Assembly: GCA_964195975.1 (NCBI GenBank)
Contig: CAXMQZ010000037.1
Coordinates: 23,721-87,720, forward strand
DNA length: 64,000 nt
Direction: 5' to 3'
From: an uncultured Polyangiaceae bacterium
GTDB taxonomy: Bacteria > Acidobacteriota > Thermoanaerobaculia > Multivoradales > JAHEKO01
Shown here: one piece after another, positions 14,815-35,047 of the stretch
Layout of the letters: each line of letters begins with the position of its first letter
Position numbering within the stretch: the first letter of the stretch is position 1
The notes under the pieces: model-generated
Database searches by the model: none
What the model was told of the DNA's origin: nothing
Seen by the model: only the letters and a program-made list of their open reading frames with translations
Made by a program: the position numbers and the translations under genes

Positions 14815-15306
14815 ATGAAATTGGACAAGAATCGAGAACCGTCGCTTCAAGAGCGCTATGCGCCAAACAACAAGTGTTTTGGCTGCGGCCCCTCAAACGC
14901 GCAGGGTTTGAGAATACGCAGCTTTCCAATCGAGGGCTCTCCGCACAGCGAAGTCGTCGCCGAATGGACACCTCGGCCCTGCTACGAGGCATTCGACAAT
15001 ATTCTCAATGGCGGCATCATCGGAACGCTCATGGATTGCCATAGCAATTGGACCGCTATCTGGCATTTGATGTGTCGTGACGATCTGGATAAGGCACCTC
15101 ACACGGTCACAGCGGATTTTCACATCATGCTGAGACGCCCAACACCAACTGATCGTCCGGTCAGACTCATAGCTCAGGCTGTGGAATCCGATGGTCCTCG
15201 GGTGAGGGTCGAGTGCAAGCTGCTGTCGGGCGAGACGGTAACGGCCTCATGTACAGGGAATTTTGTAACGGTAGGGCCTGGTCATCCTGCATATCGGCGC
15301 TGGTAG
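14815..15306 (+). CDS. PaaI-family hotdog-fold thioesterase
   Basis: 163 aa. The N-terminal ...NNKCFGCGPSNAQGLRIRSF motif is, as far as I recall, characteristic of PaaI/4HBT-type thioesterases. It begins 2 nt after the leuS stop. Confidence 0.55.
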   Translation: MKLDKNREPSLQERYAPNNKCFGCGPSNAQGLRIRSFPIEGSPHSEVVAEWTPRPCYEAFDNILNGGIIGTLMDCHSNWTAIWHLMCRDDLDKAPHTVTADFHIMLRRPTPTDRPVRLIAQAVESDGPRVRVECKLLSGETVTASCTGNFVTVGPGHPAYRRW

Positions 15307-15316
15307 GCGAGATCGA

Positions 15317-15784
15317 TCAGATAGCAGTTTCGCTGCTGTTTTCCGACGCGACGATTTTGTCCGCAATAGAGGTTGGGATCGCTATCGGGCGTAGGCCCTC
15401 CGGATCGTCCATGACGCAGCAAACCGATGCTGTCTGACCACGCGCGATGAGTTCCCCGTCGACTGTGAAGGTGATCTCGTAGCTCATCGATCGGCGGCCT
15501 ACTTTGAGTATCTGGACCCGAATCTCCAGGACGTCGCCAAGTCGTGCCGGACGGAAGTACTGACACTTGGCCTCCACCCGAGGCCACCCGATATGAAGTC
15601 CATCGATCTCCATATGGACTTCGGCACCCAGGACGCGGAGAAGCTCGTGCTCGGCGGTCTCCATGAAGACGAAGAAACGGGAGAAGTGAACGATCCCGCC
15701 CATGTCGGTGTCGGCAAATTCGACTCTACGGGACGTGTGGATCTCCGATACAGGAAATACGACATCTCGATCGGAATCAGGCAT
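15317..15784 (-). CDS. YbgC/4HBT-family acyl-CoA thioesterase (hotdog fold); start at internal Met (MPDSDRD...)
   Basis: C-terminal 155 aa ...VVFPVSEIHTSRRVEFADTDMGGIVHFSRFFVFMETAEHELL... resembles YbgC-type thioesterases. The upstream 67 codons of the ORF are Arg/Ser-rich and overlap the GT4 gene, so the internal ATG is used. Its start overlaps the GT4 stop (ATGCCTGA). Confidence 0.55.
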   Translation of the reverse strand: MPDSDRDVVFPVSEIHTSRRVEFADTDMGGIVHFSRFFVFMETAEHELLRVLGAEVHMEIDGLHIGWPRVEAKCQYFRPARLGDVLEIRVQILKVGRRSMSYEITFTVDGELIARGQTASVCCVMDDPEGLRPIAIPTSIADKIVASENSSETAI

Positions 15785-17093
15785 GAATAGCCCCCTCCTT
15801 GCTACGGCTGAGAATGTGCTCGTAGACCGCGAGAGTACGGCGGGCCATCGCTTCAGCGTTGTAGATCTGCTCGACTGCACGTCGTCCCTGCTTCCCGAGC
15901 TCGAACCTCTGGAATTGATTGTCCCCGAGCTCGCGAATCGTCTCGGCCAGGGCCTCGCTGGAATTTGGCTGAACGAGGAGGCCACCTCCCGAATTCTCGA
16001 TCAGCTCGGTGAAGGCGCCATGATTTGGCTGGACCACCGGTGTGGAAGCGGCCCAGGCTTCGAGGACAAACAGACCCTTCGGCTCCCGGTAGGTCGTCGG
16101 GACGGACAAAATATCGATATCGTGCAGCATCGCAATCTTCTGGGCTCGGTCGACCTCGCCGAGACTCTCGACGCTACCGTCGGCGATCCAGGGAGACAGT
16201 TTGCTGAGCTGCTCCTCGAAATAGACTTTGTCTCTGCTGCTCAGATAGCCAGCCAGCTTGAGCTTGAAGCGTTCGCCGCCGGGTTCCCGCTTGATCTGGT
16301 CGAAGGCATCGCAAAGAAGATGCAGTCCTTTTTCCGGACACAGCCGAGCGAGGTACCCGATGGTTACCGTGTCGAGATCGGTCTCGGTCTCTTCGGCTAC
16401 TTCGAAGTCGTCCAGGTGGATTCCCAGAGGTACGACTTGAATCCGTTCTGATGGCACTTGGAGTAGCCTCGTCATTTCCGAGGCGTAGTAGCGACTCGTA
16501 GCGACAAAGCCATCGATCTGATTTGCGTGAGCAACCATCTCGCGATGGACTCCGCGACGAAAATCGTCGGTCAATTCGGCGAGGTAGAGATCTTCCCCGG
16601 TAAGCCCACAAACCACAGGAACATCGAGCTCCTGTCGAATTGCGCCGCCGATGCCAAGAAACATGGCGTTGGTAATTTGAACCAGATCCGGTTTGAAAGT
16701 CTCCACAAACTCGAGCAACCGATGCAATTCCTTCTGCTGATACCCATCCTCTGCTTGTAGCACCGATAGAGTGAGGGCTCCGAGCAACCCGGCATCGGTC
16801 GAGCCGGCAAATCGAGACACCCAGCGGAGTAAACCTGGGCGGTCGAGGAGCCTGTCGAGAAAGCGAGGCGACCGCCTGAATAGTGAAGATTTCTGTTGCA
16901 GATAGACGTTGACCGCTCCGTAGAAGACCGGTTCGAGGCTGACGTCCTTCTCATCAGTTTTCATCGGTGTATAGGTCGGGATGAGAGCGACATCATGGCC
17001 TTTGTCGATCAAGGCCGAGGCAAGAGTGTTGTCATGTAGACAACTCCCGCAATACATACCGGCCGCGCCGGCGGCTATGTAGGCAATCTTCAC
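15777..17093 (-). CDS. Glycosyltransferase family 4 (GT-B, group 1)
   Basis: 438 aa. The EX7E region ...EPKGLFVLEAWAASTPVV is present. An N-terminal Rossmann-like domain is present. Confidence 0.8.
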   Translation of the reverse strand: MKIAYIAAGAAGMYCGSCLHDNTLASALIDKGHDVALIPTYTPMKTDEKDVSLEPVFYGAVNVYLQQKSSLFRRSPRFLDRLLDRPGLLRWVSRFAGSTDAGLLGALTLSVLQAEDGYQQKELHRLLEFVETFKPDLVQITNAMFLGIGGAIRQELDVPVVCGLTGEDLYLAELTDDFRRGVHREMVAHANQIDGFVATSRYYASEMTRLLQVPSERIQVVPLGIHLDDFEVAEETETDLDTVTIGYLARLCPEKGLHLLCDAFDQIKREPGGERFKLKLAGYLSSRDKVYFEEQLSKLSPWIADGSVESLGEVDRAQKIAMLHDIDILSVPTTYREPKGLFVLEAWAASTPVVQPNHGAFTELIENSGGGLLVQPNSSEALAETIRELGDNQFQRFELGKQGRRAVEQIYNAEAMARRTLAVYEHILSRSKEGAIHA

Positions 17094-18568
17094 GATTTGG
17101 ACTTCGTCTCAGTCAATCCGTCTGAGAAAAACCTGTTCACCACTCGAGGTTCTGGCTTCGGGCTCAAAAGCGATCCCACAATCATCGCGACAATCGCGGC
17201 CGCGAGTATGACAGCCACGGGCATAATCCCTGTACTCGCAACGGTGTAGCCGGGAGTGGCCCAGGCTTGGGACAGGAAATAGGTCCAGAGGACTGCGACG
17301 GTCAAAAGGACCGCCCAGGCTCCTTGTTTGGTGCTTCGTCGCCAGTACAGGGCCGCGACTACGATCGGAAAGAGGGAGGCGAAACCGGTAAACGACCAAA
17401 TACCAAGACGAAAAATACTCCGGTTTGAGACGAGCGAAAGCAAGTAGGTAGCCACCAGGAGCGCTACCACGAACCAGCGGCCTGTTCGTACGACACTTCG
17501 TTCTTCCGCTCCCTCGGTGGAAGCATGTCTCTTCACGATGTCCTGAGTGAAGAGTGTGCTGAGCGATAGGATTTGCGAGTCCAATGACGACATCACGGCT
17601 GCAAAAACACCTGCACCGAGCAGTCCCGCGAGCACTTTTGGGGCGAACTCCGAAATCATACGCAAGAGAACGGCATTGGAGGCTGGACCTTGTAGGTCAG
17701 GTACTGCGGCGCTTCCGGCTACGCCCAGAAGCACGCTGGGCACCCAAACGATGGCGATGCAGATTGGGTAGGCCACGATCGCGAGCTTGAACGTTTCTAC
17801 TCGCTGGGCGGTGAGCCAGTGCATGAAAATGTGGGGAAACATTCCGATCGACAGAGGTATGAATGTATAGCTGATCAATGTAGTGGCCGGGATCCTGCTG
17901 CCGTGCATCAACAAGGCTGGATCGACGCTCTTCAGGGCGCCATCGAGACCGCCCAGGTGACGAAAGATGATGACAACGGAAACGGCACCCAGAGTCATGA
18001 AAACCAGTGCCTGGAGTGTGTTGGCCCATGAGGTCGATCGGACACCCCCAACGACGACATAGATTGCTACGACAAGACATATCAGCAGGCTGCCGAGCCA
18101 TTGCGGCACCAAACCGTCGGTGATCGCTTCGAAGGTAATACCGGCTCCCATGACACCGATGAGGAGGTAGGGAACCAAGAGGGCGACAAGCAGTACGAAG
18201 AGTCCGACCCCTAGGCTTGGAGAATCCCATCGCTCGCGAAAAAACTGAACTTGGGTCACGAAACCGTGACGTTTTCCGAGTACCCACAGGCGCGTACCGA
18301 CAAACATAAACACGACTGGCACGACGAAGGCGGAGCTCGAGGCCATCAGGCTAAATACTCCGATTCCCTGGTGATAAGCCTCGCCCGAAGCTCCTAGCAT
18401 GGCAAAGGCGGTCATGTGAGTGCCAAACAGAGTCATCAGGAGCACAAATGGACCGATGGTCCGACTTGCCAGGAAGTAGTCCTCGCCGGTGCCACGGAAG
18501 AGACGATGGCCGAGCAATCCGACGCTCAAGACGAGGACGAGATAGAGAACGAGAACTGCGAGAGTCAT
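17090..18568 (-). CDS. Sodium:solute symporter family (SSS) transporter
   Basis: 492 aa polytopic protein with SSS-like topology. A DUF3311-like small partner sits immediately upstream with a 4-nt overlap. Confidence 0.8.
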   Translation of the reverse strand: MTLAVLVLYLVLVLSVGLLGHRLFRGTGEDYFLASRTIGPFVLLMTLFGTHMTAFAMLGASGEAYHQGIGVFSLMASSSAFVVPVVFMFVGTRLWVLGKRHGFVTQVQFFRERWDSPSLGVGLFVLLVALLVPYLLIGVMGAGITFEAITDGLVPQWLGSLLICLVVAIYVVVGGVRSTSWANTLQALVFMTLGAVSVVIIFRHLGGLDGALKSVDPALLMHGSRIPATTLISYTFIPLSIGMFPHIFMHWLTAQRVETFKLAIVAYPICIAIVWVPSVLLGVAGSAAVPDLQGPASNAVLLRMISEFAPKVLAGLLGAGVFAAVMSSLDSQILSLSTLFTQDIVKRHASTEGAEERSVVRTGRWFVVALLVATYLLSLVSNRSIFRLGIWSFTGFASLFPIVVAALYWRRSTKQGAWAVLLTVAVLWTYFLSQAWATPGYTVASTGIMPVAVILAAAIVAMIVGSLLSPKPEPRVVNRFFSDGLTETKSKS

Positions 18569-18768
18569 CGATCGGCCGGTTCTGTGGCACCCAGGCGCCG
18601 GACCAAAAAGGCCATGGCGAGGGAGATCAAAAGACAGTAGCCGATATGATAGGCGAGACCGACAGGGATTCCACCTAGTACGGTGTCATATCTCCGCCAG
18701 AGCCAGAAATCGTTGTGAAGGAGGTAGAGCACCGCCAACATGAACGCAACAGTGAGACTTCTATTCAA
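18565..18768 (-). CDS. DUF3311-like small membrane protein (SSS-transporter partner; YhdT-like)
   Basis: 67 aa with two TM helices. ATGA overlap with the symporter gene. YhdT/PanF-like small subunits typically sit upstream of SSS transporters. Confidence 0.5.
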   Translation of the reverse strand: MNRSLTVAFMLAVLYLLHNDFWLWRRYDTVLGGIPVGLAYHIGYCLLISLAMAFLVRRLGATEPADR

Positions 18769-20030
18769 GACGTGGTCTCCGCCGCTGCCATCTGGGAAGT
18801 TGGCGAAACGGTCTCATCGAGCCCCTTGAGAAGGTCGTCCACCGGTCGGGTGAAGACATGCCCCATCAGTAGATCGACAAGTTGTCCCTTGCACTCAGGG
18901 TAGCGTCTCAAGAATTTTGAAAAACTGAAATCGGGATCGTAGAAAGCGGATACCAGCTTGCGCATCGCTTCGGCACCTCTTCTGAGCTCAGGCTCGAAAG
19001 CACGAAGCTTGTCGATATCGATCTCGGGCTCGGACAGAGCCGCGCAGATACATTCGGCAGCCATCGCGCCTGACTTGAGAGCGAGAAACACACCCGTGGA
19101 ATATATGGGATCGACAAAACCCCCTGCGTCGCCGACTAGGACCCAACTGTCACCAACCATGGACTCGACACTGTAGGAATAGTCCTTGGCTACCAAAACG
19201 GGTCGGGCCTGTCGCGCACCCTCGAGCCGTGGACTCAAGGCGGGGCACCGTTCCAGCTGGAGTTGGAAAACACTCTGTGGATCTCCGTTGGCCCCTCGTG
19301 CCAGGTAGTCGACAGGGCCTACCACCCCTACACTGACTCGATCGTCGGGTAGTGGGATGAACCAGAACCACGCCTTGTGGTCGGTCGTGTGGAGAATGAG
19401 GGTCGCCCCGGCATCGCGCCCGCAATCACGTTGCGCCCCTTCGAAATGAGTGTAGTAGGCGGCATGGCGTAGGGTGGGATCTGGAACCAGGAGCTCGAGC
19501 TGCCGAGCAAGGAGGGCTCTTTGACCGGTTGCATCTACAACGATTCGGGCGTCGAGCTCTCCTACGGTCCCGAATTCGTCTTCGAAGCGAACACCTGTGA
19601 TCCGATCATCCTTCTCCAGATAGCGTTTCGCCCAACAACCTCGTCGGATTTCTGCGCCTCTTGTTGCTGCCTGATTGATAAGCATTTGGTCGAAGCGGCT
19701 TCGCAACACTTGCCAGGTCCGTGAGCTCTCTACCGGATCGTGATCCTCGAAATAGAACGGTGTCGTTGCTTTGCCGTTGCCGGCAAAGAACTGGACACTA
19801 CCCTTGACTGGAAATGAGCTCGTTTTCATAGTCTCGAGAACTCCCAGCTTCTGAAAAATCTGATAACAGGCCGGCATCAGAGACTCACCTATGCTAAAGG
19901 TGGGCTGAGAAGAGCGTTCCAATACGACAACTCGGTAGCCTTGCTGAGCAACAAGATTTGCAACCGTGGCGCCTCCAGGACCGCCTCCGACAACGATTAC
20001 GTCATAGTTTTCGTGTGCTTCGATGGCCAT
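18765..20030 (-). CDS. FAD-dependent oxidoreductase of the flavin-dependent halogenase family (tryptophan-halogenase-like)
   Basis: GxGxxG VVGGGPGGA, GDAGGFVDPIYSTG and the halogenase signature WxWxIP (KAWFWFIPLPDD) are present. Confidence 0.65.
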   Translation of the reverse strand: MAIEAHENYDVIVVGGGPGGATVANLVAQQGYRVVVLERSSQPTFSIGESLMPACYQIFQKLGVLETMKTSSFPVKGSVQFFAGNGKATTPFYFEDHDPVESSRTWQVLRSRFDQMLINQAATRGAEIRRGCWAKRYLEKDDRITGVRFEDEFGTVGELDARIVVDATGQRALLARQLELLVPDPTLRHAAYYTHFEGAQRDCGRDAGATLILHTTDHKAWFWFIPLPDDRVSVGVVGPVDYLARGANGDPQSVFQLQLERCPALSPRLEGARQARPVLVAKDYSYSVESMVGDSWVLVGDAGGFVDPIYSTGVFLALKSGAMAAECICAALSEPEIDIDKLRAFEPELRRGAEAMRKLVSAFYDPDFSFSKFLRRYPECKGQLVDLLMGHVFTRPVDDLLKGLDETVSPTSQMAAAETTS

Positions 20031-20032
20031 GG

Positions 20033-22243
20033 TCAGAATTTGTACTGTAGCCCGAGAATCGCGGAGAAGGGGCGGCCCGGTATGACGGAGAAGCCGCCGA
20101 AACCTCTGGTTTCGTACTCGGTGTCGGCGACATTATCCAGATTCAGCGACAGACGCCAATCACCAAGCACATAGGCGGCAACCAGGTCCAGAAGCGCATA
20201 ATCATCAAGCTCTGTTTCGTTGTCCTCGGCAATAAATTGATTGCCGACATAGCGAATACCCCCGCCCACGGTGAGTCCGCTGTCAAACTTCTGCGTCATC
20301 CAGAGCTTGGCCAGATGCTCGGGTGAAAAGGTGCTTCTGTTACCTGACCGATCCACCGTTACAAAGGCTGGAGGAAACGTGGGGATCACTACAGTCTCTG
20401 CAAATCTCGTGAGCTCTGAGACCGAGTAGGCGTAGGAAAAGAGGCCGGTCAAGCCGCTGCTCAGATGCGCTGTGACCTCGAGCTCGATCCCTCGAGACCG
20501 TTGATCACCAGACTGTTGAGTAAATCCATTATCGTCCGGGATCGCGATGTTCTCGCGCTCGAGCTCATACAAAGCGATTGTCAGACGAGCACGTCCGTCG
20601 AACAGTTCGTTCCGAATGCCGACTTCGATCTCTTGACTCTCTTCGGCGCTGCGTTCTCCGACGACCCTGGGGGAAGGTGGGGCGAAGGCGCGCGAAAAGT
20701 TGCCGTACAGCGAGATCCTCTCGGTGGGTCGATAGACCGCTCCGAACATCGGACTGACCTGACCGTCGTTACGTGAAGTATCTGTCACGTCGTCCTCGAA
20801 ATCGATCGAGTCGTAGCGGGCGCCCAGAAGTAGTTGGAATTTGGAGTTGAAGGCCATCTCGTCGATGGCGTAGGGAGCGATAACTCGAGTCTGAGAGTTC
20901 CCCGACGCCGATACATTCGGCAGCTGAAAGAGAGGCTCCATCGCTGTCTCGATCGGATCGTTTATCGATATCGGCGGCAGCAGTGCCACATCGAGCCCAT
21001 AGATGTCGTCAAATCGCGACAGCTCGATCCCAGTCAGCAATCTGTGTCGAATTGGACCTGTTTGCGCCATGAGCACGGTCTCGAATTGATTGCCAAAAAA
21101 GTCCTGCTTGTCATCGAGCTGGAGCAGAGACCGTGTGACCAGGTCTGCGGATGGCACTTGGCCTGGAATCACGAAGCCCAGTAATGTGCCATCGGTATCC
21201 CAGTCGAGCTGCCGGAAGTAGGTCTTGTTTCGAATCGCGAACGTTTCCGAGAAGCGATGCTCGACATCCACTTGGCCCCGATGAATTTTTTGTTGGGAGA
21301 AATCGAAGGGAGATCCATAGGAGGTCTCTCGATCGACCTCCGATCGATCCAGAGCGGTGACAGGAATGCCTGCGTCTGGGCTGTAGTCGGAGTCGACGTA
21401 TTCGTAATTCACATTCAGAGTCGTGTTCGGGCCCGGTCTCCACGAAAAAGCTGGATTGAGAGCCCCCGTGCTGCCCTCGGTGTTGTCTCGGTAGCCGTCG
21501 GTGTCTCGATAGAGACCGTTGAACCGGAATGCGAACTCGCCGTTTTCCGAGGCACGGTTGATGTCTAGAGCCCCCTCGTAGGTGCTAAAACTTCCGGCCG
21601 AACCTGAAAAAGTTCCAAAGTTGGCCAGGGCGGGCTGTTTGCGCACAATGTTGACCGCTGCAGCAAGTGGGTTCGGACCGTACAAGAATCCAGCGGGCCC
21701 CTTGAGCATCTCGATTCGTTCAGTGTTGTAGAGCTGGTAGAAGGTGACTTCTGGCTCGGGCGCTCCATCAGTAAGAATCAGACTACTCGACAGCGAGTCG
21801 AATCCACGAACCACGAAGAAGTCGAAAACGCCCGAACCAGTCTGTGGGTTCACGCCACTGATGTTTTCTAGCGCATCTCCCAATACGATCGAGTTCTGCT
21901 CTTGCATCAGAGCTTTGCTGACCGCACCTACGTTGAATGGTGTCCAAACCAGATCGATCGGAAGCTTGGTCGAAATGGTATTCGATGAAGGGATCAGCGG
22001 CATTGGCGCTTCCACAACCACTGTCTCCTTCTGAGTCGCTACGGGCTCGTCCTCGGAGATGTTCCCGGAATCCTGATTCTCGGGAGCGATCTCGGCCGCA
22101 TCGGCCTCAACGGCACTTGCGAGAACCGAGTTGGCGAAAAGGACGCCGACTAGCGTACAGGTAACCAGAATCCTCAACAGGGATCCTGGTCCTCTGTAAA
22201 TACTCTGCGGAGATGATTCTGGGTTCATGATTTTTCTCTTCAA
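20033..22243 (-). CDS. TonB-dependent outer-membrane receptor
   Basis: 736 aa. N-terminal signal peptide, plug/barrel architecture, C-terminal ...LGLQYKF terminal aromatic. Its start lies 3 nt from the stop of the halogenase-like gene. Confidence 0.85.
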   Translation of the reverse strand: MKRKIMNPESSPQSIYRGPGSLLRILVTCTLVGVLFANSVLASAVEADAAEIAPENQDSGNISEDEPVATQKETVVVEAPMPLIPSSNTISTKLPIDLVWTPFNVGAVSKALMQEQNSIVLGDALENISGVNPQTGSGVFDFFVVRGFDSLSSSLILTDGAPEPEVTFYQLYNTERIEMLKGPAGFLYGPNPLAAAVNIVRKQPALANFGTFSGSAGSFSTYEGALDINRASENGEFAFRFNGLYRDTDGYRDNTEGSTGALNPAFSWRPGPNTTLNVNYEYVDSDYSPDAGIPVTALDRSEVDRETSYGSPFDFSQQKIHRGQVDVEHRFSETFAIRNKTYFRQLDWDTDGTLLGFVIPGQVPSADLVTRSLLQLDDKQDFFGNQFETVLMAQTGPIRHRLLTGIELSRFDDIYGLDVALLPPISINDPIETAMEPLFQLPNVSASGNSQTRVIAPYAIDEMAFNSKFQLLLGARYDSIDFEDDVTDTSRNDGQVSPMFGAVYRPTERISLYGNFSRAFAPPSPRVVGERSAEESQEIEVGIRNELFDGRARLTIALYELERENIAIPDDNGFTQQSGDQRSRGIELEVTAHLSSGLTGLFSYAYSVSELTRFAETVVIPTFPPAFVTVDRSGNRSTFSPEHLAKLWMTQKFDSGLTVGGGIRYVGNQFIAEDNETELDDYALLDLVAAYVLGDWRLSLNLDNVADTEYETRGFGGFSVIPGRPFSAILGLQYKF

Positions 22244-22282: not shown

Positions 22283-23614
22283 TTAGGTGTATCTTCCGCC
22301 GCGGTGCTCTGGGTCATAGAACTCTGGCAGCAGCGTATCGACCCGGAGGAGCCCTTTTGTAGTCAGACAAATCTGGTCTCCGTCGACATACAACATCCCT
22401 CGGCTCTCAAAGCTGCGAAGCTGATCGGAGAAAGCATCGACAACATCGACGTCGAACTTGGAAGTGAAGTATTCGGCGTTCACACGACCAAGCTTGAGTT
22501 GCAGAATCAGCTCACGAATAAGCTGCTCTCTTGCGGAGGTCGAATAGGCCCGTGCTATCGGCAACTCAGGCACGTCGATCCGCGACAGATATTCACCCCA
22601 ACTGTCGACATTCTGAAAGTGGACTCCGCCGATGTGCGAAAACGAGGCTACTCCTGTGCCCAGCAAGTCGCATCCATGCCAGACCGAATCGCGATAAACA
22701 AAGCGGGCTCGCGCAGGGTCACGCACCATGGTGTAGGCGCTCGAGACCTGGTATCCGACCTTCGCCAGTTCCTGAAAGGCGTAGTCGTGCCAGGCTCGTT
22801 TGTCATCCCAGTCCGCCAGAGGTTGATCGAATGAGCCCTCGAGGATATTGCGCGAGTATCGGGTGTTGAAAGGCAGCTCCAACTGGTAGATGGTGACGCT
22901 GTCCGGTGCCAAGTCGACCGTTCTGGCCACCGAGTGGCGCCACGTATCCCAGGTTTCACCCACCATTCCCGCGATGAGATCGATATTGAGCTGATCGAAA
23001 TCGAGCTCATCGATCCAGGGGAGGCATCGGTCGATTTCCTTGGAGACGTGGGCACGCCCATTGGCGCTCAATATGGAGTCGTCAAAGCTCTCGATCCCGA
23101 GACTCAAGCGAGTTACACCGATGTCGCGAATTGCTTCCAGCTTGGAGCGAGTCAGAGTTCCCGGTTCGCACTCGAAAGTCACCTCTTCAACGCCAGTCCA
23201 GGGGATTGCTTCCTTGAGTCGAGCTGCCAAGGCTCGGAGGTGAGTGGAGCTTATGAACGACGGAGTTCCTCCTCCGAAATATACAAACTTGGGTTGTCTG
23301 TCGCGAATCGCGGTATGGGTGCTGAAAAGCTCGACTTCGGTAGCCAGGGCATCCAGGTAGCGACCAATCTCGTCGGAGCTCTTGTCGGTAAAGACCTTGA
23401 AGTAGCAGAATTTGCAGCGTTTGCGGCAAAACGGGATGTGGAGATAGAGACCGAAGTCTCTTGCAGTTTCTGGTTCGCGATCAAGGGCTTCAAGGGCCAC
23501 ATTCAGCCCATCATGGCGCCAATGGGAGTAGGGAGGATAATTCGACACGAAGACACTGCCGACCTCGGTCTCGGTGTGGGTAGGTGGCGTGGTCGCTGAC
23601 TCTGGTTGGCTCAT
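22283..23614 (-). CDS. Radical SAM enzyme of the HemN/HemW/HutW (coproporphyrinogen-III-oxidase-like) family
   Basis: CxxxCxxC as HIPFCRKRCKFCYF, followed by GGGTPS. Length 443 aa with a HemN C-terminal domain. Confidence 0.8.
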   Translation of the reverse strand: MSQPESATTPPTHTETEVGSVFVSNYPPYSHWRHDGLNVALEALDREPETARDFGLYLHIPFCRKRCKFCYFKVFTDKSSDEIGRYLDALATEVELFSTHTAIRDRQPKFVYFGGGTPSFISSTHLRALAARLKEAIPWTGVEEVTFECEPGTLTRSKLEAIRDIGVTRLSLGIESFDDSILSANGRAHVSKEIDRCLPWIDELDFDQLNIDLIAGMVGETWDTWRHSVARTVDLAPDSVTIYQLELPFNTRYSRNILEGSFDQPLADWDDKRAWHDYAFQELAKVGYQVSSAYTMVRDPARARFVYRDSVWHGCDLLGTGVASFSHIGGVHFQNVDSWGEYLSRIDVPELPIARAYSTSAREQLIRELILQLKLGRVNAEYFTSKFDVDVVDAFSDQLRSFESRGMLYVDGDQICLTTKGLLRVDTLLPEFYDPEHRGGRYT

Positions 23615-24738
23615 AATTTACGTACCGGTTCTGCGAAAGCGAAGAGAGTACCATCGACCGTGCCTATTATCAGATATCCCGCCGCGACGCTGGGCGAGGC
23701 GGTCATTGACTCGCCGGTGTCGAAGTTCCATACGACGGAACCGGTCTCCAGGTTTAGAGCCAGGAGCTGGCCGGCCTGGGTTGCGATGAATACTCGATCC
23801 CCTACAATTACGGGGGAAGAGTCAATCCGGTCGCCGGTTGTGTACGTCCATCGGATCTCTCCGGTCTTGGGGTTCAGGGCGTACACGTTCTTGTCGCGGC
23901 CACCGAGGACAGCCAGCTGCTGCGTAACTGCAGCCGAGGCGTAGAAGGGAAAGTCTCGTTCGGGATTGTCGTAGGTCCAGGCCAATTCGCCTTTCGCCAG
24001 ATCGATCCCCAGAATCTGGCTCTCGAAGTTGCCAACTACCGAGATATTTCCTACAACAGCTGAGCTAGCCCCTACATACCCGCCGAGAGATATTCGCTTG
24101 ATCTCCTGACCGTCGTTCAACCGCACGACCCGAAGATATCCGTCGCACCCAGCCGAGATTGCGTTCTGTTGCCAGATTGCGGGGGTCGCGTTTACATAGC
24201 CCTCGGTTTCAAGCCTCCAGCGCAGCTCTCCCGACTCGGGATCTAGGCAGTAGAGGTAGTTGTCATAGGAGCCAAAGAGCAGGCATCCGCTGCCGAGATT
24301 AGGCGAGGAGGTAATTCCAGCGTCGGTCTCGAAAACCCATTTTTTTGTGCCTGAGGTGGCGTCCAGGGCGTGGAGGAGTCCTGATTCGTTGCCAAAGAAG
24401 ATGGTGCCGTCGGACACCAGGGGTGAAGATTTGATTTCTGAATCGCTCTCGAATCGCCATCGCTCTCGGCCTGAGCGCAGATCCAACGCCCAGAGCGTTC
24501 CGTCCATGTCACCGGTGTAGACGCTGTTGCCAGAGATTGCGACTGTGGCTTCGAAACCGGACTCATCGTGAAAGACCCAGCGAGGCGCGAGATCTTCAGG
24601 CAGGTTGCTTTCGGTAAACCCGCTGAGCTGAGGGTTGTGGCGGAAACTGGCCCAGTCGCCTTCATTGCCGTGCTGAGCCTCGTCGGCAATCACCGAGTGG
24701 GCAGGACCCCCAAGGATGATGAGAGCCAATGTGAGCAT
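23611..24738 (-). CDS. PQQ-repeat beta-propeller protein (BamB-like), secreted; start at internal Met MLTLALIILGG
   Basis: Repeated ...G.l.AlD..tG...W modules (WALDLRSGRERW, LHALDATSGTKKW, LYCLDPESGELRW, VYALNPKTGEIRW, LLALNLETGSVVW). Confidence 0.7.
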   Translation of the reverse strand: MLTLALIILGGPAHSVIADEAQHGNEGDWASFRHNPQLSGFTESNLPEDLAPRWVFHDESGFEATVAISGNSVYTGDMDGTLWALDLRSGRERWRFESDSEIKSSPLVSDGTIFFGNESGLLHALDATSGTKKWVFETDAGITSSPNLGSGCLLFGSYDNYLYCLDPESGELRWRLETEGYVNATPAIWQQNAISAGCDGYLRVVRLNDGQEIKRISLGGYVGASSAVVGNISVVGNFESQILGIDLAKGELAWTYDNPERDFPFYASAAVTQQLAVLGGRDKNVYALNPKTGEIRWTYTTGDRIDSSPVIVGDRVFIATQAGQLLALNLETGSVVWNFDTGESMTASPSVAAGYLIIGTVDGTLFAFAEPVRKL

Positions 24739-24787
24739 CTTGAGGCTTTGCCTCGAGAGCAAGTATTGCCCACAGGTTTCGAGAAGG

Positions 24788-26002
24788 TCAGTATGCCGAT
24801 TCATAGATCTCGAAAAGCTCCGCCTGGCTCACGGGTCTGGGATTAAATCGTGCCGTCCACTCGAGGACGGCCGCCTCAGCCAGTGCTTCCAGATCCCCGC
24901 GCGAGACACCGAGATCGTGCAGGCTGTCCGGCAGCTCGAGAGTCTGACGAAGCTGCTCGATATAGGTAGCCAGGGTGTCTCCAGGTTCATCTTTTCGGTT
25001 CAGTCCGGCGAGGTCGTTTAGAGTTGAGTAGTCGTCGGCTACCACGCTGCTGTTAAAGCGGACGACATGCGGCAATAGAACACCAATAGCCTGTCCATGA
25101 GAAATTCCGTACGTCGCAGTCAATGGGTTTGCGCAGGCATGCGCGGCGCCGAGCATCGACTGCTCGATCGCGGCGCCCGCTAGGTGTGCCCCCAAGAGCA
25201 TCTCTCCTACATCTGCTAGGTCGGCTTCTTTCGACAGAGGCGATTGGAGGCTCGAATGGAGAAGCTCCCAGGCTCGCATCGACCAGACTCTCGAGATTGG
25301 GTTTCTACGTGTGCTGACATGACTTTCGATTGCATGGCTGAGGGCATCGATGCCGGCCGCGGCCGCCACTCGAGTGGGCGCGGAAGCGATCAATCCAGGA
25401 TCGAGGACCACTGTACGGAACAGGGCCTGCGGATCACCGCAGGCCATTTTGCGCCCCGATTCGGAGTCTGAGATCAGGGCAAACGACTGCGCTTCGCTGC
25501 CCGTTCCGGCGGTCGTCGGAATTCCGATCGAAGGCAACATTGAAGCATGGGTCTGGCCATAGCCCCAATAGTCGGTTATGGATCCGCCATTGGTGAGCAA
25601 GAAGTTGATGGCTTTGGCGCAGTCCATGCTACTGCCGCCGCCCAGTCCAACAATGCAGTCCGGCTCGAAGTCCGCAACCTGTCTCGCAGCGGCTTCTACC
25701 AGGTCGGTAGTAGGATTCTCGGTGGCACCATCATAAAGACGGACTTCAATCGAGCCTGTAGAGAGCGTTTCGAGTGCCCTTTGTACATGACCAGCCTGGT
25801 GCACCCCCTGGTCGGAAACGACCAGCACCCTCTTGGCGGCGAGATCCTCGACAATGGTTCCTAGCTCGCCTAGGCGACCCTCGCCAAAAAAAACCCGGAT
25901 AGCTCCCACATCGGCTTCCCAGTGGTACCGAGGACCGGTGCCGAGATAGCGGCTCCGCGCGGCCTCAGAATCGGTATCGAGACCGTTTCGTCGTTGTTTG
26001 TT
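24788..26002 (-). CDS. Iron-containing (group III) alcohol dehydrogenase; start at internal ATG 4 nt after the upstream stop (GAGG RBS)
   Basis: GGGSSMDCAK motif and ...RVLVVSDQGV.... The ORF-track N-terminal extension overlaps the upstream gene by 59 nt and is probably not translated. Confidence 0.8.
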   Translation of the reverse strand, partial: NKQRRNGLDTDSEAARSRYLGTGPRYHWEADVGAIRVFFGEGRLGELGTIVEDLAAKRVLVVSDQGVHQAGHVQRALETLSTGSIEVRLYDGATENPTTDLVEAAARQVADFEPDCIVGLGGGSSMDCAKAINFLLTNGGSITDYWGYGQTHASMLPSIGIPTTAGTGSEAQSFALISDSESGRKMACGDPQALFRTVVLDPGLIASAPTRVAAAAGIDALSHAIESHVSTRRNPISRVWSMRAWELLHSSLQSPLSKEADLADVGEMLLGAHLAGAAIEQSMLGAAHACANPLTATYGISHGQAIGVLLPHVVRFNSSVVADDYSTLNDLAGLNRKDEPGDTLATYIEQLRQTLELPDSLHDLGVSRGDLEALAEAAVLEWTARFNPRPVSQAELFEIYESAY

Positions 26003-26009
26003 CATTGCC

Positions 26010-27488
26010 TCAGACGCCGCCGCTCGCGGCTGAGTCGCCGACGTTTGTCGGCGACCCGCTGGATTCATGGGGTCCCTGAAGCGCTCTCTGACGGTAGAGA
26101 TGCTCGAACAGATTGCCTTCGTGCGGCTGATCCCAGGCGACTTCGCAGGTCGAGTAGGCGCCCAGGTTCAAGCGTTCGATGTTCGGTGCGGTCATCAACT
26201 CCTGTCGGAATTGGGGGTCCTCGGTGAGTGCGGTTACGACCAAGCTCGACCCCATGTTTTCGACGATGGCACTCTGTCTCATCTCGACTACTGTGACGAA
26301 AGGGAATAGGTATTCGGCCTTGGCCAGGGGGTGGTCTGGGTCGCTGCAATAGATCACGGTAGGCAGCAAGAAAGCGCAGCCATCTACGTGGGCGACACGA
26401 TCTCCGCGGCGAAGCTTGGAGGTAATGTCCTCGGCTCCCGGTTGTCGCAGCTGCGAATCGATCTGAGCCGACAAACGATCGGCGATCCGGGCGTCGGGAA
26501 AGGCCGCCAGCCGGGCGTCGGGGTCGTCGAGGGGGAGGGCCTGGATTTGGACCAGGCGCTCGGCCAGGGCTTCGGCTATCTCTCTGCCGGACTTCGCGGT
26601 CCAGACACCTGACGCGTTGATGCACGACCTACCACCGTTCTTGGCCACAGAATCAACCGTTAGATCGAGATACTCCTGCCAACGGTCCGCTCCATCCTCT
26701 CCCAAGATCACCTTGCTCCAGCCTGGGCCGTGAATTTGGACTCTCGGATCGCCTTCCCACGGCTCTACGGTTGCTCGGTCTCCGAACAGCATCGACCGAC
26801 CACATCGTAGAAGGATCTCACCGACCCCCGAGTAGTCTGTCGGGTAAAAACTGATGGCTTCGGGTGCGCAACCGGCCGCTAGAAACGACTGTGCTATCCG
26901 GAACGGGGACCACGGTTCACGGCTGCCAGGTTTGAGCACCAATGGGACTTTCAACGGGATGGCTGGAATCCAGAGCGAGTGAACTCCCGGTGAGTTGCTT
27001 GGCAGAATGACTCCGAGGGAGTCCGTTTCACGACGGAAGGAAAGACAGCGGCCTTCCTGTAGCGTCCACCCTTGATCTATGACCTCTGGCTCGATCCCCC
27101 TCGTCAGCCCACCCAAGACTGTCTCCATCTCGGCCATCACGAAACGGATCTTCTCCATATTCGATCGGACGAGCGCCTGTGGCATGCCGGTAGTCGAAGA
27201 AAGCTGCTCGACATAGAGATCGGGTGATTGAGACGATGTGCCGACTGGAAGCTCCGAGTCCATGAAGAATCCTGCCGCTTTGCGGCAGATTTCCAGGAGC
27301 TCTCTTGCGCTGAGACTTTCGAGTGCCTGCCTGTTGGATCGAGTCGATCCGAGATCTCGAGCTATCAGGCCCGAATTGGCCATGCTGACCTCAGCCACGA
27401 CGTCACCCGTTCGGACGTCTGTCAGGGAGTTGGTCGCAAGGCTCGTATAGGAGGTGCCTGCTCTGAGCAGCGGGATCTGGATCATCAA
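26010..27488 (-). CDS. Aldehyde-dehydrogenase-superfamily protein, LuxC-like acyl-CoA/acyl-protein reductase candidate
   Basis: 492 aa. ALDH-like core ...ILPSNSPGVHSLWIPAIPLKVPLVLKPGSREP... with a candidate catalytic Cys in NGGRSCINASG. It is paired with an adenylating enzyme immediately upstream. Confidence 0.5.
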   Translation of the reverse strand: MMIQIPLLRAGTSYTSLATNSLTDVRTGDVVAEVSMANSGLIARDLGSTRSNRQALESLSARELLEICRKAAGFFMDSELPVGTSSQSPDLYVEQLSSTTGMPQALVRSNMEKIRFVMAEMETVLGGLTRGIEPEVIDQGWTLQEGRCLSFRRETDSLGVILPSNSPGVHSLWIPAIPLKVPLVLKPGSREPWSPFRIAQSFLAAGCAPEAISFYPTDYSGVGEILLRCGRSMLFGDRATVEPWEGDPRVQIHGPGWSKVILGEDGADRWQEYLDLTVDSVAKNGGRSCINASGVWTAKSGREIAEALAERLVQIQALPLDDPDARLAAFPDARIADRLSAQIDSQLRQPGAEDITSKLRRGDRVAHVDGCAFLLPTVIYCSDPDHPLAKAEYLFPFVTVVEMRQSAIVENMGSSLVVTALTEDPQFRQELMTAPNIERLNLGAYSTCEVAWDQPHEGNLFEHLYRQRALQGPHESSGSPTNVGDSAASGGV

Positions 27489-28600
27489 TACACTCCAACC
27501 ACAACCGATTCTTCAAAACGGGAGAAGAGACGCAAGTTGCTGACACCGTCCCAAGGGTAGGGCTCGATCGGCTCGGCTCGCTCGCCCTCGTCTCGCTCCA
27601 GAAACCGAGGCATCAGAAACTCTTTGGTAAGAGTTGTCAGCATGACGCGGCCGGTCTGGCCATATGGGACCGTCTTGCCCGTGTCTTCAGGGTCGACCAA
27701 TTCAAAGACGGCTCGAGGCGAGGGCGGGTAGTAGGTGATCTTGTAGTCATCATGGCGGTCGAATGGCTTACAACAAGCCAAGCCCATAAGAGTATTTCCG
27801 TAGGTAGGGATGAAATCTACTCCTGGCACCAGCTCTTCACGTGCAAACCGGTGGAATTGAGCGTTCATCTCCGTGCCGCCACAGAAGATGCCGGTAATTC
27901 CCATCTTGGTGAGGGAGATTTTTTCGCAAACAGCTTCAAGCAGCTTTGGAGTCGTGAAAATGCAAGTGACGTTTTCATGGGATCTAAGAATCTTGAGTCC
28001 CTGGTCGACGATATGGTCCTTGTAGTCTTGGAGATCTTGATGACGGCCCAAACGGATCAACCGGTTTACCCAACGAGGGTCGAGATCGACATGAAAGGAA
28101 ACCCCACCCCGATGTTGAGCCAGATGTTCGATCGCCAATCTCAGCCGTCTTGGTCCGGTGGGTCCTAGCATCAGCCAATCGGCGCCAGATGGGAACGTAG
28201 TGCTGTCGAGGGTGTCACTGAACATCTCATAGTCGGTTTGGAAGTCCCGAATATTGATCCGTGACTTGGGAAGGCCGGTCGAGCCACCGGTTTCGAAGAC
28301 ATAGAGAGGCTCGTCTTGCAACGCCTTCGGCACCCATCTTCGAATCGGACCGCCACGGAGCCACTCGTCTTGAAAGTGTCCCAGAACCTTCAGATCGCCA
28401 TAGTTATGGATGACTTCCCGAGGGTCGAAATCTAGCTTGCCAGCAAAGTCGAGCCAGAAGGGACAACCTGTTTCCGGACCGAAATGCCAAAGAATCATCT
28501 CTCGTACATGCTCGTCGAGAGTCTTCTTTGCGGCCTCGATCCGAGTCTGGAGAGCCGTAGGATCCTTGTTCGTAGCGGGGTCACTGTGATGATCGGTCAT
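27485..28600 (-). CDS. LuxE/PaaK-like acyl-adenylate-forming enzyme (acyl-protein synthetase family candidate)
   Basis: 371 aa. The adenylation motif ETGGSTGLPK matches the (S/T)(S/G)G(S/T)TGxPK consensus. Its length fits LuxE rather than full ANL ligases. Confidence 0.5.
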   Translation of the reverse strand: MTDHHSDPATNKDPTALQTRIEAAKKTLDEHVREMILWHFGPETGCPFWLDFAGKLDFDPREVIHNYGDLKVLGHFQDEWLRGGPIRRWVPKALQDEPLYVFETGGSTGLPKSRINIRDFQTDYEMFSDTLDSTTFPSGADWLMLGPTGPRRLRLAIEHLAQHRGGVSFHVDLDPRWVNRLIRLGRHQDLQDYKDHIVDQGLKILRSHENVTCIFTTPKLLEAVCEKISLTKMGITGIFCGGTEMNAQFHRFAREELVPGVDFIPTYGNTLMGLACCKPFDRHDDYKITYYPPSPRAVFELVDPEDTGKTVPYGQTGRVMLTTLTKEFLMPRFLERDEGERAEPIEPYPWDGVSNLRLFSRFEESVVVGVY

Positions 28601-28687
28601 GGCGTGCAGAGTCCTCTAGTTTGAAATCCAAGATGCCAGTGTGATCACTGGGAGTGATTATTTCAAGCTGTGTGGCAGTTCCAGGGT

Positions 28688-33566: not shown

Positions 33567-34985
33567 ATGCCAATGAAATTCGCCTGGATGACGGACATGC
33601 CCATTTCCTGTTCGAGACGGGTTTCTGTTGCTTTGCTGCTTATTTGCGCCGCTAGCGCGGGGTTTCCTCTATCGTTGAGAGGCGAAGACCAGGACGTCCG
33701 ACAGGGTCGCGTGATCAAGGGCCCTGGACAAGTCATTCCGTGGAGAGAGAGGGTTCAGGTAGTCAATGACTCATTAGCCGAGCGGCTGAGCTCGTTGCTG
33801 CCCGTCCTGATGAGAGAGGTCGGCATCGACATGTGGCTGGTCGTAAACCGGGAGTACGCAGAGGATCCGGTCTATTTCAGTCTCGTGCCGGCACCGGTCT
33901 TTGCGGCGCGCCGGACAACGATGCTGGTTTTCTTCGATCGAGGTGATGGGCAAGAGATCGAGCGTCTCACAGTGAATCGATATCCTCTTGGGGAGCTTTA
34001 CCAACCCGCCTGGGAAGGGGGAGATCTCGAGGAGCAGTGGAATCGTTTGGCGCAGATCATTCGCGAGCGTGATCCGAAAAGGATCGGTATCAATGTCAGT
34101 CGTCATTGGCCGGTAGCAGATGGTCTGACTGCCGGCCTACGGGTCCGGCTTGAAGAGGCTGTGGGTCCGGATATCGAGTCTCGTTTCGTCAGCAGCGAAA
34201 ATCTTGTAATTCGTTGGCTGGAGTCCAGATCGGATCTCGAGTTGCAGCGTTATCCGCACATTGTCGAGCTCGCCAGAGGCGTAATTTCCGAAGCCTTCTC
34301 TGGAAGTGTGATCACGCCAGGCGTTACGACCACGGATGATGTCGCTTGGTATATCCGCCAACGCTTTTCAGATCTGAATCTCCCGATTTGGTTCATGCCA
34401 GATGTCAACGCGCAACGATCCTCGATCGCCTGTGAGCGGGACTCGCCTTTTTGTGGGATCCAAGACACGGTGATTCGCCCGGGAGACGTCTTGCACACCG
34501 ATGTTGGTATCTGCTACCTGAGGCTGTGCACCGATACTCAAGAGATGGGGTATGTGTTGCGTCTGGGGGAGAGCACGGTTCCGGAGGGGCTTGCAAAGGC
34601 CCTCGCCGTAGGGAATCGATGGCAGGATCTACTTACCCGGGAGTTCGTCACTGGCCGCACCGGGAACGAGATTTTGGCAGCGGCAAAGGGCTCGGCAGAG
34701 GCGGAAGGGATCCACTCGGCAGTCTACTCCCATCCATTAGGAGTGTTTGGGCATGCTCCAGGCCCTACGATCGGAATGTGGGATAACCAAGGACCCGTCG
34801 CAGATAGAGGCGATTGGAAGCTGTTGCCGAGCACTGTCTACGCTATCGAAGGCAATGTGATGGTGGGCGTACCCGAGTGGGACGGGCATCTGGTTCAAAT
34901 CAAGCTCGAACAGAGCGCGGTGTTCAACGGCGAGGCTGTGGACTACCTCGCAGGCCGACAGACAGAGTGGCATCTGGTGCATTGA
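33567..34985 (+). CDS. M24-family metallopeptidase (Xaa-Pro aminopeptidase/creatinase-like), secreted; start at internal ATG after the RidA stop
   Basis: Signal peptide MPMKFAWMTDMPISCSRRVSVALLLICAASAG followed by a pita-bread fold (...HTDVGICY..., ...HPLGVFGHAPGP...). The ORF-track start at 33438 overlaps RidA. Confidence 0.7.
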   Translation: MPMKFAWMTDMPISCSRRVSVALLLICAASAGFPLSLRGEDQDVRQGRVIKGPGQVIPWRERVQVVNDSLAERLSSLLPVLMREVGIDMWLVVNREYAEDPVYFSLVPAPVFAARRTTMLVFFDRGDGQEIERLTVNRYPLGELYQPAWEGGDLEEQWNRLAQIIRERDPKRIGINVSRHWPVADGLTAGLRVRLEEAVGPDIESRFVSSENLVIRWLESRSDLELQRYPHIVELARGVISEAFSGSVITPGVTTTDDVAWYIRQRFSDLNLPIWFMPDVNAQRSSIACERDSPFCGIQDTVIRPGDVLHTDVGICYLRLCTDTQEMGYVLRLGESTVPEGLAKALAVGNRWQDLLTREFVTGRTGNEILAAAKGSAEAEGIHSAVYSHPLGVFGHAPGPTIGMWDNQGPVADRGDWKLLPSTVYAIEGNVMVGVPEWDGHLVQIKLEQSAVFNGEAVDYLAGRQTEWHLVH

Positions 34986-35047
34986 GTTCCAAGGAATCCG
35001 ATCGTTCGTCACCTTCTTCGTCTGGGGTTTCTGGACGAAGCGACCCG

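Follow-up and report, generated by a model that had tools for sequence, protein, structure and literature searches.

I propose that three adjacent genes in a 64,000-nucleotide stretch of acidobacterial DNA (contig CAXMQZ010000037.1; the whole 64-kb stretch is called the window) encode a route by which a carboxylic acid is reduced to a primary alcohol at the expense of ATP and NAD(P)H. The genes lie on the minus strand and are called here A, B, and C, in the order in which they would be transcribed. A and B would be an adenylating enzyme and a reductase of the type represented by the protein pairs EhpF/EhpG and GriC/GriD, and C an alcohol dehydrogenase (ADH). As far as sequence comparison can tell, this is probably what they are. 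The homology, the conserved motifs, the coupling of the genes, and the synteny are observed; from them I infer the chemistry, its direction, and the class of substrate. An earlier note on the window had seen in the same genes a pair of the LuxE/LuxC kind that activates and reduces an acyl group and, with an ADH, yields a fatty alcohol. The notion of an activating and reducing pair survives, but the assignment to the Lux families does not.

To my knowledge, two-protein carboxylic acid reductases that work without a carrier domain have barely been studied, GriC/GriD and EhpF/EhpG being the only ones described. The subfamily to which A belongs is conserved over at least six phyla, wired to a partner with the aldehyde dehydrogenase (ALDH) fold and usually also to an ADH. 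If the chemistry is confirmed, the trio would make a compact acid-to-alcohol biocatalyst. The cluster anchored by A, B, and C is common among sponge symbionts and sediment bacteria, where it joins secreted beta-propellers, a radical SAM enzyme, and a halogenase-like enzyme, and the proposed acid-reductase step offers a first concrete biochemical handle on it.

Three coupled genes and the reactions they may catalyze

Gene A (27485..28600, minus strand, 371 aa) appears to encode an EhpF-type adenylating enzyme that stands alone, made up of the N-terminal domain of ANL enzymes and nothing more. The adenylation P-loop noticed earlier, ETGGSTGLPK, is indeed there, on the minus strand, at residues 103-112. 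It lies within a segment, F102-E-T-G-G-x-x-G-x-P-K112 (FETGGSTGLPK), that is invariant across 30 homologues, and at least 166 positions of the protein are invariant in the same comparison. Judging from the alignment, A is homologous over its full length to EhpF, which has been crystallised (PDB 3hgu, also 3l2k): a phmmer search of solved structures aligns residues 29-371 of A with residues 24-369 of EhpF (E 9.4e-42), and both proteins end in GVY, part of a C-terminus (...ESVVVGVY) kept throughout the family of A. When a profile of the wider family is set against the PDB, EhpF is found at E 4.6e-106 and PaaK, the next match, at 2e-9.

The only Pfam family found in A is AMP-binding (PF00501, 39.8 bits), with a match that ends at profile position 374 of 384. 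The Pfam scan finds no AMP-binding_C, so the C-terminal domain of ANL enzymes is absent, and without that domain the usual thioester-forming half-reaction should be beyond the protein. EhpF is reportedly just such an atypical ANL enzyme, without a C-terminal domain, and the paper on its structure is said to propose that EhpF and EhpG together reduce phenazine-1,6-dicarboxylate to the aldehyde by way of an acyl-adenylate. The best 120 database matches of A are 74-100% identical to it, and the identity within its subfamily is 72-83% between phyla. More distant relatives on plasmids (32-36% identity by tblastn) go by the labels 'arylcarboxylate reductase', 'phenazine biosynthesis protein', and 'AMP-binding protein', the first two of which are used by RefSeq; relatives of A in Streptomyces are annotated 'arylcarboxylate reductase'.

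Gene B (26010..27485, minus strand, 491 aa) would be the reductase, an EhpG-like protein with the ALDH fold. The list of open reading frames (ORFs) places its start at a TTG, position 27488, from which comes the 4-nt overlap with A reported earlier. The ATG at 27485 is the better start, since it gives the overlap TGATG, of 1 nt, has a GGAG ribosome-binding site before it (the junction reads GGAGTGTATTGATG), and agrees with independent gene calls, which give 491 aa and the same overlap. An overlap of 1 nt between the two genes is found not only in the window but also in loci of Acidobacteriota, Firmicutes, cyanobacteria, and Streptomyces.

By sequence B is a very divergent protein of the ALDH fold and a homologue of the EhpG-like gene. 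Pfam recognizes it as Aldedh (PF00171, 43.5 bits) and as nothing else. BLASTP aligns it over its full length with the ALDH encoded just behind ehpF on the E. coli plasmid NZ_CP076707 (26% identity, E 3e-43), and a corresponding partner protein from Anaerocolumna is 28% identical (E 2e-74). An AlphaFold2 model of B (pLDDT 85.8) has the complete ALDH fold, with a TM score of about 0.74, and a fold search with this model retrieves generic ALDHs only, at 14-17% identity, with no nearer functional relative among them.

The active site of B is more telling. The candidate cysteine pointed out earlier in GGRSCINASG is C288 in the 491-aa numbering; it is invariant in 27 homologues (GGRSC288INAS) and aligns with the catalytic cysteine of methylmalonate-semialdehyde dehydrogenase. 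The oxyanion asparagine (N164, in LPSN164SPG) and the cofactor lysine (K185, in LKPG) are retained as well. Where ordinary ALDHs carry the general base, in ELGGK, B has QIHGPGWSK, with no hydrolytic glutamate. The equivalent segment reads QGPGRAK in the EhpG-like protein and YGPGQSI in the haloarchaeal homologue. A cysteine nucleophile without a hydrolytic glutamate fits an enzyme that reduces a thioester and does not hydrolyse it.

Gene C (24788..26005, minus strand, 405 aa) encodes a complete iron-type (group III) ADH. Its longest ORF extends to 26068, so that 59 nt would be shared with B. The evidence favours a start at the ATG at 26005, which is preceded by GAGG and gives a protein of normal size. 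This ATG lies 4 nt past the stop of B, not the 8 nt given earlier. The Pfam families Fe-ADH (PF00465, 160.6 bits) and ADH_Fe_C (PF25137, 132.6 bits) are matched far over their cut-offs. The protein has GGGS at residue 122, DALSH, and the two-histidine pattern of metal ligands. Its best matches in the PDB are methanol dehydrogenase, ADH2, FucO, and DhaT, and it reaches the cut-off of no NCBIfam equivalog. All three ORFs are genuine, point the same way, and are coupled in translation. They are no chance ORFs, since each has thousands of homologues and the synteny is conserved.

The proposed reaction begins with A, which would adenylate a free carboxylate, giving acyl-AMP and pyrophosphate. The acyl group would then move to Cys288 of the translationally coupled B, and the thioester so formed would be converted to the aldehyde, with NAD(P)H as the reductant. 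That it would be reduced and not hydrolysed follows from the lack of the hydrolytic glutamate in B. Finally, C would reduce the aldehyde to the alcohol; the presence of an iron-type ADH behind B makes an alcohol the probable product. Most likely the acid that enters this route is aromatic or heteroaromatic and no fatty acid; it may come from import.

Relatives of the pair and the nature of the substrate

An exhaustive search of 1.84 billion representative proteins found 1486 EhpF-like proteins at E <= 1e-3, of which 253 reach E <= 1e-30. An EhpF-like gene adjoins one for an ALDH-fold partner in the phenazine clusters of E. coli and Proteus and in loci of Streptomyces, Firmicutes, cyanobacteria, and haloarchaea. 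The EhpF-like gene of three distant lineages has behind it, with an overlap of 1 nt, an ALDH-like gene of ~470 aa. Two fusion proteins (P0301 and P0331) are also instructive. In one, a class-III aminotransferase is joined at the N-terminal side to an EhpF-like domain (824 aa), and in the other a Zn-dependent ADH takes the place of the aminotransferase (725 aa). Both are enzymes that would be expected to use up an aldehyde product. Together with the homology to EhpF/EhpG, the cysteine without glutamate, and the coupling of the genes, these fusions argue for the earlier suggestion that A and B activate and reduce an acyl group and, with the ADH, would produce an alcohol.

Where the context of EhpF-like genes is readable, it points to aromatic carboxylates. 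In the E. coli plasmid an EhpF-like gene stands within a phenazine cluster, followed by a gene for an 'aldehyde dehydrogenase family protein', and the corresponding pair in a phenazine cluster of Proteus has been named ehpF and ehpG (PMC11278526). On Streptomyces plasmids the pair adjoins genes for DAHP synthase and PabB; on such plasmids, too, a lone 'arylcarboxylate reductase' lies amid MqnD, MqnE, and MqnC, of the route to 1,4-dihydroxy-6-naphthoate. In a cyanobacterium the pair adjoins two Zn-dependent ADHs and an O-methyltransferase of the aromatic type. In a metagenome-assembled genome (MAG) of Anaerocolumna sp. (locus L094, 5776-8294), the pair is accompanied by an aminotransferase, UbiD, and the chaperone LpdD, so that the locus looks like a pathway from an aromatic acid to an amine. 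A haloarchaeal plasmid carries in succession a symporter of the SSF family, an A-like gene, and an ALDH gene, and its symporter is 30% identical to the product of gene H of the window, described below. Within the window itself the hint of an aromatic substrate comes from the halogenase-like gene G, with its WxWxIP motif.

The Anaerocolumna pair is flanked by three radical SAM genes and a second gene for an AMP-binding protein. In another MAG (L093, 7026-9766), which represents the third of the three distant lineages, the pair is followed by genes for a LarC-like protein (Ni_insertion), a LarB-like protein (AIRC), and an outer-membrane protein of the Phenol_MetA_deg family.

Among the closest known systems is EhpF/EhpG, from the cluster of Pantoea agglomerans for the phenazine D-alanylgriseoluteic acid (3hgu, 3l2k). 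A and EhpF have the same length, align from end to end, and are both without the C-terminal domain. The homology of B to the ALDH encoded behind ehpF likewise covers the whole protein, and gene order and tight coupling are alike. The identities are low, however (~31-36% for A, ~26% for B), and the cluster of the window contains no phenazine genes. It has instead an iron-type ADH behind B and, as neighbours, secreted propellers, a HemN-like radical SAM enzyme, a TonB receptor, a halogenase-like enzyme, and an SSF symporter. Moreover, with 72-83% identity between phyla, the subfamily in the window is far more conserved than enzymes of secondary metabolism usually are.

GriC and GriD, which act in the formation of grixazone in Streptomyces griseus, are also an AMP-binding protein and an ALDH-like reductase and so resemble A and B, to go by their description in a passage of PMC10179220. 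They give the proposed route its experimentally backed precedent. According to that passage, which cites Suzuki et al. 2007, GriC makes the acyl-AMP of 3-amino-4-hydroxybenzoate (3,4-AHBA) and GriD reduces it to the aldehyde. The pathway described there differs in that its substrate is 3-amino-4-hydroxybenzoate and in that it ends at the aldehyde.

The single-polypeptide carboxylic acid reductases (CARs), such as those of Nocardia and Mycobacterium, catalyze the same net reaction, from acid, ATP, and NADPH to aldehyde, in vivo often with an ADH acting next. In contrast to CAR, A and B are two separate proteins with no carrier domain and no phosphopantetheine, and B has the ALDH fold with a cysteine nucleophile where CAR has a terminal reductase domain of the short-chain dehydrogenase/reductase (SDR) type. 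The logic of LuxE and LuxC is the same as that proposed here: an adenylating protein of ~370 aa hands its acyl group to a cysteine in an ALDH-fold reductase of ~480 aa, which releases the aldehyde. The window differs in having no acyltransferase of the LuxD type, no luciferase, and no link to lipids.

Are fatty acids reduced?

This likeness of mechanism, together with the sizes of A and B, which fit LuxE and LuxC, is what recommends the view that the pair is a fatty acid reductase whose aldehyde or alcohol, made with the help of the ADH, goes into wax esters or ether lipids. The families themselves speak otherwise. Neither PF04443 (LuxE) nor PF05893 (LuxC) is matched by A or B in a Pfam search by hmmscan, even at E <= 10, and the 60 PDB chains that best match the A-family profile include none by the name of LuxE. 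LuxE is reported to be acylated on a cysteine near its C-terminus; in A no cysteine occurs within the final 90 residues. Given the failed Pfam tests and the lack of that cysteine, the pair is better filed under EhpF/EhpG, and membership of A and B in the LuxE and LuxC families is rejected. The border is not a wide one. Against the LuxC model, whose cut-off is 21 bits, the partner protein from Anaerocolumna reaches 35.5 bits, the EhpG-like protein 19.9, and the haloarchaeal homologue 15.9, and such matches by homologous partners indicate that the EhpG-like family borders on LuxC.

There is certainly a wax ester synthase gene (WS/DGAT) in the window, at 39263-40648, with the Pfam families WS_DGAT_cat and WS_DGAT_C, and the operon of the window closes with a GT4 glycosyltransferase and a thioesterase of the YbgC type. 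Of the two hotdog thioesterases that had been placed at 14815-15784, the one at 15317-15784 is solid, but the candidate at 14815-15306 scores a weak 16.9 bits, under the cut-off. The WS/DGAT gene lies 11 kb off, on the opposite strand, behind unrelated genes. Neither it nor either thioesterase was found in any of 95 related loci (1.7 Mb, reaching only ~10 kb to each side). The neighbours that do stay with the trio are genes for a halogenase, for a radical SAM enzyme, for propellers, and for importers, and not for enzymes of lipid metabolism. With the annotated contexts of the family being aromatic besides, the idea that the pair feeds wax esters or ether lipids finds no support, and a fatty acid reductase of the Lux kind has to be considered quite improbable.

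The direction of the pathway

The three genes could also be read backwards. C would oxidise an alcohol to the aldehyde, B would oxidise the aldehyde to the acid, and A, as a PaaK-like CoA ligase, would activate the acid for catabolism. Automatic annotation tends this way: Pfam calls A an AMP-binding protein and B an Aldedh, and homologues of the two are labeled by JGI as 'PaaK-like' and 'acyl-CoA reductase-like ALDH', respectively. PaaK is, after all, the family nearest to A after EhpF, and importers (the TonB receptor and the SSF symporter) lie in the cluster, as they might in a locus for utilisation of a substrate. It is too much to ask of the two proteins, though. A stops where EhpF stops, without the C-terminal domain required to form the thioester, and B lacks the general-base glutamate required to hydrolyse one. 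A pair composed of a PaaK- or F390-type ligase and an ordinary ALDH, the outcome that the earlier note had set against its own proposal, is not what is found, since A has no C-terminal domain and B is no ordinary ALDH. Production of an aldehyde is also the better fit to the tight coupling of the two genes and to the fusions in which an ADH or an aminotransferase is joined to an EhpF-like domain. I consider an oxidative pathway unlikely, and reduction of the acid the better account of the trio.

A cluster found in several phyla

The gene A sequence was searched against one genome per species, which gave 562 matching stretches. From these, 80 loci were kept, from Acidobacteriota (Thermoanaerobaculia), Poribacteria, KSB1, Calditrichia, Latescibacterota, Gemmatimonadota, and Cytophagia. 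Synteny was assessed over 81 loci by tblastn with the proteins of the window and by all-against-all clustering of ORFs. Many contigs are cut short, and so the number of loci given for each gene is a lower bound.

A conserved cluster with A, B, and C emerges in ~70 genomes of at least six phyla, the synteny being seen in Acidobacteriota, Poribacteria, KSB1, Calditrichia, Latescibacterota, and Gemmatimonadota. Its consensus order begins with a propeller gene (~740 aa), a second propeller gene (~485 aa), A, B, C, D, and E, and continues with a propeller gene (~410 aa), a TonB receptor gene, G, a DUF3311 gene, and an SSF gene. Next to A, the most constant member is the propeller family (69 of the 81 loci, with 172 genes), followed by B (64 loci), C (36), D (31, kept behind C), E (29), the TonB receptor (14), and G (10). 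Usually two propeller genes immediately precede A and face the same way. All of the propellers have signal peptides. They are BamB-like, and their similarity to true dehydrogenases dependent on pyrroloquinoline quinone (PQQ) is faint.

In Poribacteria a conserved cytoplasmic protein of 233 aa is encoded between A and B (L011, 11193-11894, and 33 other loci, mostly poribacterial). It is weakly similar to Vgb_lyase-like beta-propellers.

The type of cluster defined by A probably overlaps with a class called 'Halo_AMP', compared here by description only, that was recognized in sponge metagenomes by its combination of a flavin-dependent halogenase with an AMP-binding enzyme (2026 preprint, bioRxiv 10.64898/2026.08.03.742642). 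According to the preprint, clusters of this class often carry PQQ-like proteins, radical SAM enzymes, TonB transporters, glycosyltransferases, and thioesterases, and their hosts are Acidobacteriota, Latescibacterota, and Poribacteria (bioRxiv 10.64898/2026.08.03.742642). They are treated there as biosynthetic clusters of peptide-like products of unknown nature, with no mention of the ALDH/ADH pair or of acid reduction (bioRxiv 10.64898/2026.08.03.742642). The cluster of A differs in that a halogenase is found in just 10 of its 81 loci.

The constancy of the propellers invites another explanation: that A, B, C, the radical SAM enzyme, and the halogenase-like enzyme process no nutrient but make or salvage a small aromatic cofactor or ligand for the propellers, or modify them, and that the TonB receptor recaptures the ligand. 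Their secretion, their usual position as a couple upstream of A, and their presence in more loci than any other neighbour of A are what one would expect, as is a receptor of the siderophore type. The halogenase-like G also resembles QhpG, LodB, and GoxB, and A is unusually conserved between phyla. But the propellers resemble BamB far more than any true PQQ dehydrogenase, G scores much better as a halogenase than as QhpG (196 versus 22 bits in the PDB), no exporter is encoded in the cluster, and the window has the enzymes without the two upstream propellers. I regard this explanation as very unlikely. A narrower form of it, in which the cytoplasmic enzymes (A, B, the ADH, the radical SAM enzyme, and the halogenase-like enzyme) make or remodel a heteroaromatic or aromatic ligand for 'empty' secreted propellers, for example a PQQ- or phenazine-like polycarboxylate imported through the TonB receptor, is highly improbable. 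If true, it would mean a new pathway for a cofactor or ligand in Acidobacteriota, Poribacteria, KSB1, Calditrichota, Latescibacterota, and Gemmatimonadota.

Difficulties with acid reduction

Several considerations weigh against the reduction of an aromatic acid by A, B, and C. Some of them concern the enzymes. Between the subfamily of A and proteins of the EhpF and GriC types the identity is only 32-36%, so that its supposed chemistry comes from homology, and the mechanism of EhpF and EhpG is itself a proposal based on structure. The proposed mechanism gives no account of how adenylation would proceed without the lysine of the C-terminal domain. The AlphaFold2 model of A (pLDDT 62) is too poor for viewing the substrate pocket.

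Other points concern the substrate and the physiology. Iron-type ADHs of the FucO/Mdh type usually use small aliphatic substrates, and SSF carriers transport small solutes; for these reasons an aromatic substrate is only a best guess. To import an acid and then spend ATP to reduce it would be odd for catabolism.

Then there are the propellers. The most constant neighbours of A have no role in the explanation offered here. The two upstream propeller genes were not found anywhere in the 64-kb window, where only D matches the family. The nearest relatives of the window, L091 and L092, share its flanking genes and have, between MltF/abhydrolase and A, two genes for secreted PQQ-like propellers of ~736 and ~490 aa (L091, 5208-8878; L092, 5200-8882). 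In the window the spacer from MltF to A is 87 nt (28601-28687).

The rest of the operon and the window

From 28600 to 15317 the minus strand of the window carries eleven closely packed genes. Gene D (23611..24804) shares 17 nt with C and 4 nt with E and encodes a PQQ-like/BamB-like beta-propeller (Beta-prop_ACSF4, 249 bits; PQQ_2, 139.8 bits) with a visible N-terminal signal peptide, by which it would be secreted. Gene E (22283..23614, minus strand) encodes a predicted radical SAM enzyme of the HemN/class C methyltransferase type, matching the Pfam families Radical_SAM and HemN_C. Its best matches in the PDB are HemN (1olt, 1.6e-33) and NocN (9.7e-32), and its CxxxCxxC, at residue 63, is present in 29 of 29 members of the family. 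Gene F (20033..22243, minus strand) encodes a TonB-dependent receptor with Pfam plug and beta-barrel domains, of the siderophore type by NCBIfam TIGR01783 (276 bits, cut-off 223.5). Degradation of heme, by E as a ChuW-like radical SAM enzyme with heme taken up through F, was considered and dropped: E scores 187 bits against a cut-off of 400 for ChuW/HutW, and F belongs with the siderophore receptors, not with those for heme.

Gene G (18765..20030, minus strand) is clearly similar to genes of flavin-dependent halogenases, and halogenation is its predicted activity only. Its matches in the PDB are 8zop (196 bits), CndH (3e1t), ChlB4, Bmp2, PltA, and CmlS. The motif WxWxIP, conserved in all 10 homologues, appears in G as WFWFIP at residue 221, and G has GGGPGG as well. 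The lysine of FPVKGS aligns with a lysine of the 8zop chain and may be the catalytic lysine of halogenases. CndH, Bmp2, and PltA halogenate pyrrole or phenol substrates attached to carriers. Near G there is no gene for a carrier protein. QhpG, LodB, and GoxB, which G also resembles, are maturases of protein-derived quinone cofactors. The case for a QhpG-like maturase is weakened by the lower scores of G on the QhpG and LodB models and by the comparison with the PDB given above.

The operon continues with a small membrane ORF (18565..18768, minus strand) that overlaps both G and H by 4 nt. It resembles DUF3311 (26.6 bits, under the cut-off of 30), and a DUF3311 gene has the equivalent place in L001 and L091. 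Gene H (17090..18568, minus strand), kept behind G in several phyla, encodes a predicted sodium:solute symporter similar to PanF and PutP (Pfam SSF, 148.8 bits; NCBIfam panF, 135.9 bits, and PutP, 120.4 bits, each under its cut-off). Gene I (15777..17093, minus strand), which overlaps H by 4 nt, encodes the GT4 glycosyltransferase (Glycos_transf_1 and Glyco_transf_4). A GT4 gene follows the SSF gene only in the closest lineage (L091 and L092) and follows G in L041, the locus of the probably cultured 'Acidobacteria bacterium Mor1' (CP011806), so its membership in the cluster is limited by lineage. Gene J (15317..15784, minus strand), overlapping I by 8 nt, encodes the YbgC/4HBT-type hotdog thioesterase (4HBT_2, 51.6 bits; 4HBT, 50.6 bits).

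A search of the window and of seven related loci for a riboswitch or RNA leader that might hint at a ligand gave none, its sole match being an Acido-Lenti-1 RNA in a KSB1 MAG (L062, 13662-13706, minus strand; 43.3 bits, over the gathering score). It sits between the ADH and radical SAM genes, where other genomes carry the propeller gene D.

Away from the operon, the plus strand of the window encodes at 34814-37231 a protein of 805 aa with Ig-like domains of the ASH/HYDIN/Cep192 type. Its neighbourhood, comprising an M24 peptidase, YjgF, and an AAA_22 ATPase, is kept in related loci of Acidobacteriota.

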